A DNA stretch of 13,797 bases, from UHGV virus genome UHGV-0079647. One strand, written 5' to 3'. Origin of the DNA: a virus. A model generated the notes under the pieces. That model ran no database searches, was not told the origin of the DNA, and saw nothing but the letters and a program-made list of their open reading frames with translations. Of the stretch, positions 9,597 through 13,797 are shown in pieces (position 1 is the first letter of the stretch; every line of letters starts with the position of its first letter). The translations under genes were made by a program, and so were the position numbers.

Positions 9597-11096
9597 TTAA
9601 GTTCTCCGTGCGATGGGCCTGATTGGGGCTGGTATCTTTTTCTCTTTTGGTTTTTTGATGTCGCGCATCATTTTTGCGAAGCGGCGCATCATGTATGCAT
9701 AGCGAACGGCGGAGAGAACGTCATCGTTAAGCTTGACGATTTTCCCGTTTTCATCACGGTGATAGAGGCGGAACTCCTCAAAGAATGGCTCACAGGTGTT
9801 GAATACTTTGAAGCGGCCATCAAGCATCATGTCGCGCAATTCAGTGATTCCAGGCTCAACAGCATTACCGCCATCAGGCCATGTCGCATGCTCCTGCAAC
9901 ATCATAAAACCAGCGTCGGCATACTGCCCTTTGAGCTGCTCACCGCCGCCCTTCTCATGCTGGTTTCCGTCATGAGGCCATGCGGTTGGCACTTTATGCG
10001 CCCATGATTTAACGGCTCCCCACGCCTGAACGGCTGTTTTTTCTTTCGCCTTCCACACGCGTGAAACGTAGATTATGTCTGCGTCCTTATCCCACCAAAG
10101 CTGAACCTGCGCCTGAGGGTGATCCCATCCGAAATCCATCCCGCCAATTACGTAGAAGTGATCAGGACACTCGAACGGCTGACACTTAATCGTCTCTTCC
10201 GGTATCTGGAAGATTCGACCACTACCCATCGTAGGAATACCGCGAGCACGCGCCTCTCTCTCATGCTCGGGATAGGATGCGATGATTTGCTCTTTCTGCT
10301 CTTCGGTATAGTGCTCAGCGTCATAGATGGTCATGTTGACCACTTTCTGCGACTTGCTGGGGTTCTTCAGGAACTTGGTAACAACGTCAGACATCCCCAT
10401 CAGCGGGGTAAACGTCAGAATTGAGAATTGCCCGTATTTGTTGGTACGGGTAAGGCCTTCGCCATAAATGCTGTATGGTGGCTCTTCGTCAAACCACACG
10501 CCGTGGATTGTGTCACCCTGCCAGCGAGCACGGCCTTGCGAGTATGGCTTGAAGTAGCAGATTGAAATGCCATCTTCAACGCCATCAGCCGTGTGATGCT
10601 TAACCAGAAGATGATCAACAAGGTTCGGAAAGAAAGGAGACTTCTTCCAGCTAATGATGTCTTCTTTCGGTATGGAACCGTAGCCAGGCTCATCATTCTC
10701 TTCGATACGACCGCACAGGATGCGTTGAGTCGTTTTGGTTACAGTCTCGTTTGTCTCGCCACCAATCCAGAAGACAACAGGCTCATAGAAACGCTTACCT
10801 TTCCACTCACCGCCATATTTACCATCAGCAGGATAGCCTTTTGTGCCCGGATAACGCCCTGTAAGGTGAAACGCGACTTCAGCAGCACCAGTAAATGACT
10901 TACCAAGCTGGTTACCAGCCATAAAACATCGCTCTGGGTAGTCATGTCCGGCGTCGATGAACTCACGCTGTTTGCTGTATGGCGTAAATTCATATAGCAG
11001 GTGTGTGTTCCGGTAGTTCTCTTCTTCTTCGAGTAGCTCGAGCAATTCGATTTGCTCTTCGTCGCTCAGGTTATCAAGAATCGCGTCCAGTTCCAC
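9597..11096 (-). CDS. terL: Terminase large subunit gp2-like (499 aa)
   Basis: Same length as P22 gp2 (499 aa as recalled); deviant Walker A-like segment (...[17 protein letters not shown]...) near the N-terminus as in phage large terminases; synteny between terS and portal. Start overlaps the terS 3' end by 23 nt. Confidence 0.95.
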
Positions 11097-11562
11097 GGTT
11101 GAATAGCTCCTTGATACGAGAGCGTCGCTTATCGCGATCTCCCTTATCAGGTGTCACGTCTTCAACTTGCGACTGCTCTTTGAGGCCCAAATCACGGGCG
11201 ATGATGTTAGCGTTGAGAAGGTCAGCGGCTGCGCCAGAGAATTTCTGATCGTAGATGATGTCTTCCGCTCGTGATGTGACGTCAGAAAAACCTTCCATTG
11301 ACCGGAAGGTTCCCCATGTTTGCCTGGTGATATCAAGGAAGGTACACAATCCTGAAATAGTCATGGCTCGCATCTTAGGGACATTAGCCTTAATTATTTC
11401 TCCCTGATATGAAAATACCTTACCCTCCCATAGTGGGTTATCATCAGCCCACTCGAAGTATTCACAACAAGCAGCCCACAGCGCCTCAGGCGATTCGAAT
11501 TTAGGATTTCGCCCATGACTACTGCGGGCCTCCCAAAATCGGTTGCCCTTTGGTGCTGCCAT
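11074..11562 (-). CDS. terS: Terminase small subunit gp3-like (162 aa from the second ATG)
   Basis: Synteny directly upstream of terL; length equals P22 gp3 (162 aa as recalled) when started at [17 protein letters not shown]...; GTGAG lies 6 nt upstream of that ATG. The ORF track starts two codons earlier at 11568 (MNM...). Confidence 0.85.
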
Positions 11563-11585
11563 ATTCATCTCACTTAGTTGTTATT

Positions 11586-11765
11586 TCAGGCTGAGGACTC
11601 TTTCGCGCCTTCAATCAGTGACTGCTTCAGCAATTCGAGTGTGCCAATCGCCTCGCATAAACTGATTTCACCATCGTAATCATGGATGACGCTTTCCAGC
11701 CGATCGTATAGCTCTTGAGTAATTGGGAATTTCTTCTCCTTACCCAAATTGATTACGCGGCTCAC
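11586..11765 (-). CDS. Candidate small protein (59 codons, GTG start), not in the ORF track
   Basis: Manual translation: GTG at 11765..11763, preceded by GGAG with a 6-nt spacer, open to TGA at 11588..11586, giving (M)SRVINLGKEKKFPITQELYDRLESVIHDYDGEISLCEAIGTLELLKQSLIEGAKESSA. Starts 1 nt after the upstream ORF's stop and ends 17 nt before terS, filling an otherwise non-coding ~200-bp gap. Confidence 0.35.
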   Translation of the reverse strand: MSRVINLGKEKKFPITQELYDRLESVIHDYDGEISLCEAIGTLELLKQSLIEGAKESSA

Positions 11766-11766
11766 A

Positions 11767-12009
11767 TCATGCTCCGGTGGTGAACAGGTCTAACGCTTCC
11801 TTCGATTTACGCACCGCTTCAAATGTGCGGATCGTGATATCCGAATTAGCGCCGCCTGATTGGAAGTGAATTTTGAATAGCTCAAGCTTCAACTCGTCAG
11901 TGCCGATGAATTGAAATGCTTCTTCTGCGGCTGCGTTCTGGTTCATGACCAGCTTGTAAATCTCTAACTGGAATTTCTGTTCTTCAGTCATGGGAATAAT
12001 CTCTGCCAT
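11767..12009 (-). CDS. Hypothetical small phage protein (80 aa)
   Basis: ORF with GGAG 6 nt upstream of the ATG (aacGGAGccaacaATG), lying in the lysis-to-terS accessory region. No motif recognised. Confidence 0.55.
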   Translation of the reverse strand: MAEIIPMTEEQKFQLEIYKLVMNQNAAAEEAFQFIGTDELKLELFKIHFQSGGANSDITIRTFEAVRKSKEALDLFTTGA

Positions 12010-12112
12010 TGTTGGCTCCGTTTATCCGTTAAAAGGGATATCAGTTAAGTTATCCCGTGTAGGGTATAAGCCATTATCAAAGCCACTCTGTAGGGAATGG
12101 CTTTTGTAATAA

Positions 12113-12493
12113 CTACTGTTCGCTTAGCTTCTGCTTCAGCAAGTAACCTTCGAGCATCCAGATTTTGTTTACAGCATTTTGCCGGGCAATCTTCCGACCA
12201 ATTTCTGCATCAAAGTTTTCCGGGCTTGCACAGGCACTCTCTCCGGTGACGGTGAAGCCATTCTTCAGCACCAGCACGCAGAAAGTGAGCAACTTCAATG
12301 GTGATAAATCACGATCGCCTTCTTCTGGTTTTTCTCTGCCACAATATTCGTTGCTGGAAATGGCACCATTACGTCCATCATAAGCAGTAAAGTAATGCTC
12401 GCTTTTAATCACGTCTTCGATGTGATGAGGAGTGATTCGCGGGGATGTTTTGCCTTTCTCAACGATTTCTTTTTCGATTTGCTGGTCGTTCAT
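12113..12493 (-). CDS. Hypothetical phage protein (126 aa), possibly of the N4 gp49 / Sf6 gp66-like family
   Basis: Clean ORF with AGGGT upstream of the start. Family guess is based on position (Sf6 gene 66 sits just upstream of terS) and on recalled resemblance only; unverified. Confidence 0.5.
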   Translation of the reverse strand: MNDQQIEKEIVEKGKTSPRITPHHIEDVIKSEHYFTAYDGRNGAISSNEYCGREKPEEGDRDLSPLKLLTFCVLVLKNGFTVTGESACASPENFDAEIGRKIARQNAVNKIWMLEGYLLKQKLSEQ

Positions 12494-12651
12494 AATTATG
12501 ACCCTGTAGAGTGGTTGCTTGATTAGGATGTCTTTCCATCAGTCCGCCACCACAAAGAATCTTTTTTGCCATCAGGCAGGAGGTTCATCTTTCAGTGGCT
12601 GCCAGTGTTATTTCCCCACTTACTGGCTTGGGTTGTTTCGCGGTACTGCCG

Positions 12652-13194
12652 TTAATTGGTGAGTCCGGGGATTACGGTTTGCCCGTGCTGTTCAAGGCGT
12701 TCAATTCTCGCCAGTAGCTGAGGCTTCTTAATTTTTCCCCAGCGATTAAGCAGGCGGCCTGACATGCTGGCAACATCCTTCTCTTTCATGTACTCCAGCA
12801 TTACGGCATTTCTCTCTTCTTCAAATTGACGATGACCAACCTGAAGCATGGCGTACATCCAGTTGAATGCGTTGATGTAAGCAATTTTGATACGCATTGC
12901 TTCTTTTTTGGTGTAGGACATAACCAAAAGCATCAACCCATCCTTACGTAGCCGATAGAATTTTTGTGGCTTACCATTCTGTAACTCATTGTTTTTATAG
13001 CAAACCTCAAAATTGAGTTTTGTATCAAACTCTTCAGGACAAGCAGCGATAGTTCTTTCTACATCACGCACAACGTTGTCATGTCGCTTACGAAATGCTT
13101 TCGCCACCATAAATGAATCGGTGACAGGGTCATTGTTGGTAATAAAAACCAGTTCTTTGAAATCAATGCCGTCAACGATAGTTGGATAATTCAT
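12652..13194 (-). CDS. Rha-family phage regulatory protein (180 aa)
   Basis: N-terminal region ...FITNNDPVTDSFMVAKAFRKRHDNVVRDVERTI... matches the Rha-domain consensus core (...iA..fgK.H.nVlRdi...). Location between lysis genes and terS is where rha lies in P22. Confidence 0.75.
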   Translation of the reverse strand: MNYPTIVDGIDFKELVFITNNDPVTDSFMVAKAFRKRHDNVVRDVERTIAACPEEFDTKLNFEVCYKNNELQNGKPQKFYRLRKDGLMLLVMSYTKKEAMRIKIAYINAFNWMYAMLQVGHRQFEEERNAVMLEYMKEKDVASMSGRLLNRWGKIKKPQLLARIERLEQHGQTVIPGLTN

Positions 13195-13341
13195 CGGTAA
13201 TTACCTTTTAGTGATGAACCTTGTCACACAGGATTCCGGCCCACAGAAAGGCACCGATTACCAAACCGGCATCCTCAAGGGTCATCCTGAAAGGTTCTGT
13301 GTTCATAAGTCGCGCGTGTGAAGCGCGTTTACTGCGGACAT

Positions 13342-13364
13342 AAAAAAGCCCCGCATCGCGAGGC
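13342..13364 (-). terminator. Rho-independent terminator downstream of Rz
   Basis: On the minus strand: GCCUCGC-GAU-GCGGGGC (7-bp stem with one U-G wobble) followed by UUUUUU, about 33 nt after the Rz stop codon. Confidence 0.5.
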
Positions 13365-13396
13365 TCATTAAATGGACTTTGTGATTTGCAAAAAAA

Positions 13397-13797
13397 TTAT
13401 TTCAGGCACTGAGTCCTGATGTATTCCTGCAGGTAGTTAACCTGCGCGGTTATCCTGTCGATTCCACTTCGGAGACGGTAATAATTGAGTTCAGCATCTG
13501 CTGTAAGTCTTGGGCTTTCTCCATCGCCCATGCCGCTGGCTCCGGTCGTTGACTTTGCACAGGTGGCGGCGACTTGCAGGCGCTTACGCCCAGCAGAAAC
13601 ATCATCACGGAGACTTTCGATAGTCGCGTTAGCATCAGCAAGCTCCTTTGTATATCTGGCGTCGAGTTCTGCTACGTCACGTTGACGCTTCTGCATGTCA
13701 GCGATGATGGATGTGGCTTTGTCGCGCTGGGCTTTGTAGGCGATGGCGTTATCACGGTAATGATTAACAGCCCATGACAGGCAGACGATGATGCAGA
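13397..13797 (-). CDS. Rz: Rz i-spanin (lysis protein), 5'-truncated by the window edge
   Basis: Reading frame is open from the window end; hand translation of 13797..13697 gives ...[55 protein letters not shown]..., closely resembling lambda Rz as recalled (N-terminal TM segment and periplasmic coiled coil). The track ORF (13397..13696) is only its C-terminal part. Confidence 0.9.
13450..13641 (-). CDS. Rz1: Rz1 o-spanin (outer-membrane lipoprotein), embedded in the +1 frame of Rz
   Basis: 63-aa ORF wholly inside Rz in another frame: hydrophobic signal-like N-terminus ending in a lipobox-like L-G-V-S-A-C, then a Pro-rich stretch ([16 protein letters not shown]), the hallmark arrangement of lambda-type Rz1. 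Confidence 0.8.

Follow-up and report, generated by a model that had tools for sequence, protein, structure and literature searches.

The interval between the lysis genes and the small terminase gene of P22-like phages raises the question whether the small genes found there are accessory cargo and, if so, what this cargo does. It was addressed here in a P22-like E. coli prophage (the window is the whole 13,797-nucleotide stretch of DNA analysed), which is 99.8% identical to the prophage of E. coli strain E-93. Four ORFs, all encoded by the minus strand, lie between Rz/Rz1 and terS. An original prediction had described them as a moron-like accessory block; the ORFs and gaps that it listed (12010-12112, 12494-12651 and 13195-13396) were reproduced by our ORF check, and RefSeq annotates the identical set of four CDSs in the E-93 prophage. 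Profile searches assigned all four to phage protein families and, because every ORF has such a match, they are more than chance reading frames. In the E-93 prophage Q, holin and endolysin are found upstream and all genes are co-oriented. The Rz segment inside the window (132 of 145 amino acids) aligns at 98.5% with its E-93 counterpart, named "lysis protein" by RefSeq, while the terS start is set at 11562 in RefSeq (CDS of 489 nt). On the coding strand the gene order is Rz/Rz1, a terminator-like hairpin, slot 1, linker A, slot 2, a stem-loop with linker B, DUF2560, orf59 and terS. The individual features are as follows.

13397 to 13797, minus strand: Rz i-spanin gene (PF03245, 121 bits), the upstream flank; its 5′ end is cut by the window end
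13450 to 13641, embedded in Rz: Rz1 o-spanin, lipobox present
13346 to 13366, minus strand: intrinsic-terminator-like hairpin, GAGCCUCGCGAUGCGGGGCUU then UUUUAU, directly behind Rz and before the block
13208 to 13306, minus strand: orf32, a hydrophobic mini-ORF of 32 amino acids (phrog_16173, E 2.1e-23), leader of a Rha or KilA-N cassette
12652 to 13194, minus strand: Rha-family protein, 180 amino acids, ATG start, N-terminal Phage_pRha winged-helix and C-terminal ORF11CD3 domains; one allele of slot 1
12527 to 12651, no strand assigned: linker A, a non-coding spacer of 125 nt between slot 1 and slot 2
12113 to 12493, minus strand: acb4 homologue, 126 amino acids, ATG start (PF13876, N4 gp49/Sf6 gp66 family), predicted cyclic-dinucleotide sponge
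12079 to 12104, minus strand: conserved 10-bp stem-loop at the junction of slot 2 and the DUF2560 leader
12010 to 12078, minus strand: linker B, conserved leader upstream of DUF2560 (68 of 71 loci, median identity 100%)
11767 to 12009, minus strand: DUF2560 protein, 80 amino acids, ATG start (PF10834 over its full length, 143.3 bits, cut-off 25); P22 Orf80, HK620 HkbM, Sf6 gp67
11586 to 11765, minus strand: orf59, 59 amino acids, GTG start (phrog_3546, E 1.7e-42); P22 Orf59c, HK620 HkbN, Sf6 gp68; optional
11074 to 11568, minus strand: small terminase gene terS, gp3 type (PF16677, 106.7 bits; phrog_606), the downstream flank

The content of the interval was compared in 71 viral contigs coding an identical DUF2560 protein, which served as fixed anchor. 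These loci display 28 different gene arrangements. Rha is present in 30 of them, KilA-N in 12 and T5orf172 in nine, and two known anti-defence families recur at this one locus across relatives, Acb4 (13 of 71) and Tad2-like (four of 71). Slot 1 of the window holds orf32 and Rha; at the Rha position relatives carry KilA-N, T5orf172/MUG113, a Tad2-like gene or nothing. Slot 2 holds the acb4 homologue and is empty in most relatives. Its cassette of 413 bp (12114-12526) is missing with exact boundaries in Sf101 and P22; the flanking direct repeats amount to a 6-mer only, and there is therefore no evidence for site-specific insertion. P22 carries the pid moron at the site where the window has 27 bp. 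A Tad2-like gene (PF11195) adjoins Acb4 in E. coli EC21Z-014 and in the isolated phage Huey. Genes related to the acb4 homologue occur in 524 of 5426 complete E. coli genomes, and the exact gene combination of the window in only nine of the 5426. The interval consists of exchangeable gene cassettes parted by conserved non-coding linkers. The variable slot in P22-like phages that had been anticipated is thus real, as relatives differ by precise gene presence or absence, and the block is neither invariant nor composed entirely of core phage functions.

Linker A is found in 66 of the 71 loci with a median identity of 97.6%, whichever genes flank it, and also in Sf6, a phage that has no Rha module. 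Neither strand of linker A folds significantly (z-scores of −0.25 and −1.37), and a reading of this linker as a structured RNA was rejected. The stem-loop at 12079-12104 exists in three or four sequence variants that all keep the stem, with compensatory changes at four pairs; 97% of cells are paired, compared to 35-51% when the partner is slid. These substitutions suggest a structural role beyond recombination homology. The hairpin at 13346-13366 has a 9-bp stem with six GC pairs in the terminator scan, and the same segment is also found in P22, IME10 and 18 of the 71 surveyed loci. An Rfam scan of 11000-13797 returned asX2 as sole match, below threshold (26.5 bits versus 70) and treated as chance. 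Note that orf32, the hairpin, the stem-loop and the 12527-12651 linker had been missed originally, most of them lying in gaps labelled intergenic.

Among the cassette genes, the 126-amino acid ORF is the one to which a mechanism can be assigned. PF13876 matches its residues 20-123 with 119.6 bits (cut-off 27, E 8.4e-35) and is present in 120 of 120 homologues among the matches listed. According to Chang et al., the Acb4 family corresponds to PF13876 and its members are tetramers that soak up CBASS cyclic dinucleotides, on behalf of an infecting phage and against the immunity of its host; their Table S3 has entries for Sf6 gp66 and for E. coli A0A0H2Z1H7, the latter identical to the window protein at 124 of 126 positions. 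Identity amounts to 98% with Sf6 gp66 (phages Sf6 and Huey have 98% identical copies), to 45% with N4 Acb4 (E 1e-28) and to approximately 29% with SPO1 Acb4, for which phmmer against 9E4W gave E 0.007 and hhalign a probability of 94.8%. The AlphaFold model (pLDDT 87; H3-12, H22-28, E29-36, E69-76, E81-87, H96-125) keeps the elements of the Acb4 protomer in 9E4W: N-terminal helices, a three-stranded antiparallel sheet and a long C-terminal helix. In a Foldseek search of the PDB, ranks 1-13 were occupied by 9E4W chains only (E ~3e-4, probability 1.00, target-normalised TM 0.60-0.68), the first other match having an E of 0.12. The window protein and the family have in common the core motif LT.C.L.L.NGF.VTGES...P.NFD.EIGR, of which NF[DN]xEIGR is invariant within the subfamily. 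Sequence and model together identify the protein as a member of the Acb4 family.

The ligand pocket is only partly conserved. The hydrophobic contacts of SPO1 Acb4 are kept (F48 as F80, F62 as F94 and I66 as I98), and about half of the ten ligand-contact residues differ (K36 to L68, E49 to T81, V56 to C88, Y57 to A89, T70 to I102, K81 to M113; N63 to D95). Since several of these contacts are unconserved, ligand specificity cannot be read from the sequence; N4 Acb4, a c-di-AMP binder, likewise departs from SPO1 at most contact positions. The Sf6-type subclade has in addition an insertion of ~27 residues between strands 1 and 2, modelled with lower confidence as two extra helices. A homotetrameric pinwheel with four inter-protomer ligand pockets is reported for SPO1 Acb4 and eight AlphaFold3-modelled homologues, while binding of CBASS cyclic dinucleotides or phage rescue from CBASS is reported for SPO1, N4, Bas69 and eight homologues. 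Chang et al. state that 8 of 8 purified homologues bound 3′3′-cGAMP and that those from phages of Gram-negative hosts bound 3′3′-c-di-AMP too. From this homology we infer that the window protein would have anti-CBASS activity, form a tetramer and bind ligands of this kind. The statement that none of the four products has a recognisable role is out of date for this one. Anti-defence cargo had been expected in the slot, and for this one gene the expectation was right (PF13876, Table S3 and Foldseek); the profile and structure searches gave all four ORFs a family and this one a named function.

The resident of slot 1 is one of several interchangeable regulators. It is assigned to the Rha family by PF09669 (82.8 bits, cut-off 29.9), PF10549 ORF11CD3 (91.1 bits), TIGR02681 (87.8 bits, cut-off 45.95) and phrog_518 (E 2e-81), domains that identify it as a predicted winged-helix DNA-binding regulator of the Bro network. 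The presence of rha at this place in P22, stated in the original prediction, was confirmed, as ORF201 carries Phage_pRha and ORF11CD3. The 3′ third of the window gene has 93% nucleotide identity to P22 ORF201, and its N-terminal part has no such match. The classical rha phenotype, said to go back to Henthorn and Friedman in 1995, is reportedly an inhibition of phage growth in IHF-deficient hosts; a consensus search of the window revealed no IHF site, with 0.5 expected by chance alone, which makes the search uninformative. The mini-gene orf32 is found in 10 of the 71 loci, and every time a Rha or KilA-N gene follows it directly.

The last two genes before terS, DUF2560 and orf59, encode small, acidic and helical products that are confined to P22-like phages; the former is predicted to have four helices. 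DUF2560 is found in 158 phage records, all P22-like, to be compared with 179 that have a P22-type portal, and 899 of the 5426 E. coli genomes carry it; when 1.84 billion representatives were searched with a profile, only 67 clusters at 50% identity emerged. Being near-universal in enteric P22-like phages it is not cargo, and the view of the whole block as accessory has to be abandoned for this gene. AlphaFold modelled it with low confidence (pLDDT 68), a Foldseek search with this model had no match below E=2, a sequence search of the PDB gave a chance-level match only, and a literature search on DUF2560, orf80 and HkbM retrieved nothing relevant. The few longer DUF2560 proteins were rejected as informative fusions, being a GDSL lipase that is truncated, an HTH below threshold and, in a cadherin-repeat protein, a match by chance. 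The GTG of orf59 is found one base past the DUF2560 stop codon. This optional gene occurs in 45 phage records and in 26 of 78 surveyed loci (about one third of relatives), and is cleanly deleted in phage IME10; its homologues (64 clusters at 90% identity, Enterobacterales only) are all annotated "hypothetical", and searches of the PDB, Pfam and NCBIfam gave no match.

We consider it very probable that the interval is an accessory late-operon segment of a P22-like prophage, made of linker-separated cassettes, in which a mechanism can be assigned to the Acb4-family sponge alone. To transcribe the block, the Q-modified late polymerase would pass through the terminator that follows Rz. The Acb4-family protein would assemble into a homotetramer and trap, in the pockets between its subunits, cyclic dinucleotides produced by host CBASS cyclases, likely of the 3′3′-cGAMP, cUA or c-di-AMP type; deprived of this signal, the CBASS effector would not be activated and the phage cycle could be completed. 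The guard systems Panoptes, PanDA and Panoptoo would fire once the sponge drains their decoy signal, and this known cost would account for the patchy carriage of acb4. Expression from the late operon might be late for countering CBASS, a point that counts against this explanation.

The term moron-like implies a different reading, autonomous units that a repressed prophage expresses to bring about lysogenic conversion or superinfection exclusion, as pid or lambda bor and lom. The interval is the position of P22 pid, a moron with its own promoter and Rho-independent terminator that is expressed in the carrier state; precise presence or absence among collinear relatives is found for acb4 (Sf101 and P22), Rha (Sf6) and orf59 (IME10); several cassettes of relatives end in terminator-like hairpins; and the block has a slightly lower GC content (0.39-0.46) than the terminase genes (0.48-0.50). 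In its strict sense the term fails, however. The four genes share the orientation of the late operon, and no sigma-70-like promoter was found on the minus (coding) strand of 11000-13797 by a consensus scan that is blind to weak or non-sigma-70 promoters (the plus strand has two such sites, with 3.6 expected by chance). No terminator-like hairpin follows Rha or acb4, the only strong one of the minus strand being that upstream of the block (13346-13366). Acb4 proteins serve an infecting phage against host immunity, and none of the five small proteins matched a defence model in a PADLOC scan, which also rules out that the block is a known defence system. Since the scan detected no promoter specific to the block, its genes are most likely carried along by the late transcript rather than being true morons; their transcription, with a timing deduced from this arrangement, is most likely restricted to lytic growth. 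We regard expression as autonomous morons as highly improbable.

A narrower doubt concerns the sponge itself, whose Acb4 fold, derived from a dsRNA-binding domain, could have acquired a diverged function (another nucleotide, RNA or a role other than in CBASS). Five of the ten SPO1 ligand contacts differ, the insertion is modelled, at lower confidence, as two extra helices, and Chang et al. mention that extensions may add functions and that the Acb4 monomer resembles dsRBDs. Specificity also drifts within the family, N4 gp49 (Acb4) binding c-di-AMP with a Kd of 111 nM and preferring it ~100-fold over cUA. Such a divergence is nevertheless quite unlikely in view of the diverse homologues that all bound 3′3′-cGAMP in that study, of the retained pocket residues F80, F94 and I98, of the motif NF[DN]xEIGR, invariant in the subfamily, and of the Tad2-like sponge that adjoins the gene in relatives, Acb4 and Tad2 being often fused in other phages. 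For DUF2560 and orf59, the alternative is a conserved helper function in virion DNA packaging or late gene expression. The near-universality of DUF2560, its invariable position immediately before terS or orf59, its 100% protein identity across 80 otherwise mosaic loci and the translational coupling of orf59 to it are consistent with such a role. It is rather doubtful all the same: DUF2560 neighbours at least two unrelated terS types (the gp3 type in only 34 of 78 loci), orf59 is lacking in two thirds of loci, and the PDB, Foldseek and profile searches of DUF2560 revealed no structural or sequence link to packaging proteins.

Read as an accessory late-operon segment, the block is an ordinary, already explained case of swappable phage cargo, in which published knowledge is applied to a locus and current understanding is unchanged. 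Its practical consequence is an upgraded annotation, valid also for Sf6, from "Gp49 family protein" or "hypothetical protein" to candidate anti-CBASS sponge of the Acb4 type. The lysis-to-terminase junction of P22-like phages can be described as two linker-bounded cassette slots that sometimes hold sponges (Acb4, Tad2-like), a layout that provides a short, well-defined list of co-located genes for immune-evasion screening. Carriage of Acb4 would moreover predict sensitivity to Panoptes, PanDA and Panoptoo, which bears on prophage-host compatibility. A bolder extension, which we think unlikely, is that the Rz-to-terS interval of enterobacterial P22-like phages is a dedicated linker-bounded anti-signalling island, that its uncharacterised residents are new immune- or guard-evasion factors and that the 12079-12104 stem-loop sets their dosage through regulation or processing; DUF2560, orf59, the 50-amino acid gp65-like and 32-amino acid membrane peptides, the phrog_875 protein of 85 amino acids and DUF551 may then be such factors. 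The literature searched contained no paper linking Acb4 or Tad2 with P22-like phages, and the locus lies outside the coverage of the accessory-gene screen of Silas et al.

The closest known parallel to the island is the anti-signalling hot spot of N4-like phages (Migulavirinae), which also has a fixed position between conserved genes and varied immune-signal antagonists including Acb4 and Tad2. Its flanks are primase, SSB and vRNAP whereas lysis and terminase genes flank the interval described here, whose occupants are mostly Bro-network regulators with sponges in the minority (17 of 71 loci). The Acb4 homologue resembles those of SPO1 (9E4W), N4 (gp49) and Sf6 (gp66) in Pfam family, predicted fold and small phage-encoded size; it differs from SPO1 Acb4 by the strand 1-2 insertion and by half of the ligand contacts, and it is encoded by a temperate P22-like phage, within the late operon, instead of by a virulent phage. 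Rha has the domain architecture and genomic position after Rz of its counterparts in P22 (ORF201) and phi80, but is shorter than ORF201 (180 versus 201 amino acids) and only 58% identical overall, the N-terminal DNA-binding domain having diverged. P22 pid, located in the same Rz-to-orf80 interval, demonstrates that this site accepts foreign cassettes; it is encoded by the opposite strand, while the window lacks pid and its cassettes are co-oriented without detectable promoters. Finally, linker A and the stem-loop with linker B are the window's counterparts of lambdoid mosaic boundary sequences ("bsq" annotated in Sf6; HK620), short conserved non-coding segments that flank exchangeable modules, from which the window stem-loop is set apart by its compensatory base changes.

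The coding strand of the window is the minus strand; the low-coordinate part holds the portal, terL and terS genes, and Rz/Rz1 lie at the opposite end. The four ORFs of the original prediction were all found at the exact coordinates it gave, and each matches a profile family. The features of the interval are listed below in the order of transcription.

high-coordinate flank, minus strand: Rz, cut by the window end (PF03245)
embedded in Rz, minus strand: Rz1, lipobox present
13346-13366, minus strand: strong terminator-like hairpin of the intrinsic type, immediately after Rz and inside the late operon
13208-13306, minus strand: orf32, an unannotated 32-aa hydrophobic ORF (phrog_16173, E 2e-23)
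12652-13194, minus strand: Rha ORF (Phage_pRha, ORF11CD3, TIGR02681)
12527-12651: linker A, non-coding, 125 nt
12113-12493, minus strand: 126-aa ORF (PF13876)
12079-12104, minus strand: 10-bp stem-loop at the junction ahead of the DUF2560 leader
12010-12078: linker B, after the stem-loop
11767-12009, minus strand: 80-aa ORF (DUF2560)
11586-11765, minus strand: 59-aa ORF, orf59 (phrog_3546)
low-coordinate flank, minus strand: small terminase terS, gp3 type (PF16677)

A prophage of E. coli E-93 is 99.8% identical to the region; RefSeq annotates all four CDSs in it, following Q, holin, endolysin and Rz. For terS, 11568 is the start of the longest ORF (MNMAAPKG...); the start used in RefSeq and in P22 gp3 is two codons further in, at 11562 (MAAPKG...).

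The variability expected of this slot was borne out. Pairwise BLASTN of the window against six annotated relatives defined clean, gene-wise gaps: 12114-12526 (the 126-aa ORF and 33 nt of its leader) is exactly missing in Sf101 and P22, 12662-13403 (the Rha module) in Sf6 and 11596-11764 (orf59) in IME10. P22 carries ~630 bp with the opposite-strand pid moron against 27 bp (12024-12050) in the window, consistent with published work that places pid between orf25 and orf80. The 3′ part of the Rha gene (12652-12823, coding ORF11CD3) has 93% nucleotide identity to P22 ORF201, and the remainder (12824-13194, coding Phage_pRha) is unrelated to it at the nucleotide level. A recombination boundary lies between the two parts, an exchange of domains as is typical for the “Bro network”, the group of domain-shuffling, DNA-interactive phage proteins to which Rha belongs; the literature goes no further than calling Rha a putative regulator that contains a winged-helix motif. 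Some part of a 2.8-kb query was found in 4860 of 5426 E. coli genomes, but only nine had at least 80% of it at a single site.

Slot contents were surveyed in 80 IMG/VR loci whose DUF2560 protein is 100% identical to that of the window; the 71 containing both Rz and DUF2560 are the basis of the occupant counts. Their Rz-DUF2560 interval is 307–2164 bp long, with 28 different gene arrangements. Occupants, assigned by profile scan except for the IS element (transposase-like ORFs), are a gp65-like 50-aa peptide (43 loci), several alleles of Rha (30), Acb4 (13), KilA-N (12), orf32 (10), T5orf172/MUG113 (9), DUF551 (5), Tad2-like (4), a phrog_875 85-aa protein (4), a trypsin-like peptidase (1) and the IS element (1). 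The peptidase (246 aa, PF13365) follows a Tad2-like gene in one relative; the IS element is inserted in the slot of another. The occupants always come in one order, which gives two slots with linker A between them: slot 1 ahead of the linker (here orf32 and Rha) and slot 2 from the linker to the stem-loop (here the 126-aa ORF), the latter empty in 40 loci. The arrangement of the window (orf32, Rha, Acb4) was seen once, and in relatives orf32 always lies directly ahead of a Rha or KilA-N gene. On the 3′ side of DUF2560, 26 of 78 loci have orf59 and 34 of 78 a gp3-type terS.

The bounding sequences are well conserved. Of the 71 loci, 66 have linker A (97.6% identity), as does Sf6. It gave no significant RNA fold; a mini-ORF within it (MNLLPDGKKDSLWWRTDGKTS) resembles the start of a DUF551 protein and may be a gene remnant. 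Linker B is found in 68 of the 71 at 100% identity. At least three sequence variants of the stem-loop keep its pairing (AAAGCCA/TGGCTTT, GAGACCA/TGGTCTC, AAGCCCA/TGGGCTT), with 97% of cells paired versus 35–51% in slid controls. It was rejected as a canonical terminator because it has no U-tract.

The original prediction also presented the block as an accessory, moron-like one; neither moron-like autonomy nor uniform cargo status held. The block shows the presence/absence variation of a moron and lacks the two other features, since its genes are all co-oriented with the late operon, no promoter was found on the coding strand in a consensus scan, and the sole strong terminator-like hairpin (13346-13366, common to P22 and IME10) precedes the block, after Rz. 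Given its position inside the late operon, late transcription must pass through this hairpin. Late transcription of lambda and P22 is carried out by Q-modified polymerase, and by analogy such a polymerase would read through it here.

Uniform cargo status is contradicted by DUF2560, found in 158 phage records versus 179 with a P22-type portal. The family does not extend beyond enteric phages and prophages of the P22-like group. Of 5426 E. coli genomes, 899 carry it, and 1.84 billion representatives yielded just 67 clusters at 50% identity. Its presence is independent of terS type. Searches for informative fusions, structure matches and literature on DUF2560 found none. In HK140 and the mEp-series lambdoid siphophages, several keep just its first 28 codons (~93–96% identity), apparently a remnant of recombination at the junction. 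orf59 (P22 orf59c, HK620 hkbN, Sf6 gp68) is a genuine, optional small gene. As a guess, DUF2560 and orf59 might be conserved late-operon helpers or further host-interaction factors.

The expectation of anti-defence cargo is supported by the 126-aa protein. Its sole match in a PDB sequence search was a weak one (E 0.007) to 9E4W, “anti-CBASS 4 (Acb4)” from Bacillus phage SPO1. SPO1 Acb4 has been assigned to PF13876, with the 1,331 proteins of this family taken as the Acb4 family; Table S3 of that work includes Sf6 gp66 (Q716B1) and E. coli proteins that differ by 2 residues in 126 from the one in the window (Chang et al., PMC11722364). The window protein has 45% identity to N4 Acb4 (BLASTP, E 1e-28) and matches SPO1 Acb4 with 94.8% probability by profile-profile comparison. 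Its AlphaFold model (30 homologues; pLDDT 87) begins with helices, continues with three strands and ends in a long helix, and Foldseek against the PDB returned exclusively 9E4W chains at ranks 1–13 (next match E 0.12). Membership of the Acb4 family is therefore secure.

SPO1 Acb4 assembles into a pinwheel-shaped tetramer, with four pockets between the protomers, and binds 3′3′-cGAMP (Kd ~157 nM), other cGAMP isomers and cUA, but not c-di-GMP. In vitro it prevents the activation of Cap5, and it rescued a T4 variant from a Yersinia CBASS. All eight further homologues bound 3′3′-cGAMP, those of Gram-negative-host phages also c-di-AMP. N4 gp49, the other protein behind the Pfam family's name, binds c-di-AMP (Kd 111 nM) and sets off the PanDA guard system. 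In the window protein, the SPO1 ligand-contact residues F48, F62 and I66 are retained, K36, E49, Y57, T70 and K81 are changed, and ~27 residues are inserted between strands 1 and 2. We infer its exact ligand and tetramer from the family.

A second putative sponge points in the same direction. In other E. coli genomes the occupants of the Rha position include a KilA-N protein and a DUF2829 protein, the latter matching PF11195, “Thoeris anti-defense 2-like”. Such Tad2-like genes adjoin an Acb4 homologue at 2024-2503 of the fetched E. coli EC21Z-014 locus and at 1066-1566 of that of the isolated coliphage Huey (gene order Rz, gp65-like, Tad2-like, Acb4, DUF2560). The GenBank record of Huey calls both of its sponge homologues “anti-CRISPR protein”, which looks like automated mis-annotation. 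A single PHROG family, phrog_9467, was hit by the Tad2-like protein through its N-terminal part and by the Acb4 homologue through its C-terminal core, fitting the Tad2-Acb4 fusions published as frequent.

Published work already covers how variable the interval is, as well as rha, the P22 moron pid and the Acb4 family, including nearly identical members from E. coli and Sf6. The literature searched held no explicit account in which the interval from Rz to DUF2560 of P22-like phages has two slots bounded by linkers and repeatedly carries Acb4 and Tad2-like sponges. The interval is similar to an anti-signalling hot spot known from N4-like phages. This description is a modest contextual addition rather than a new kind of system.
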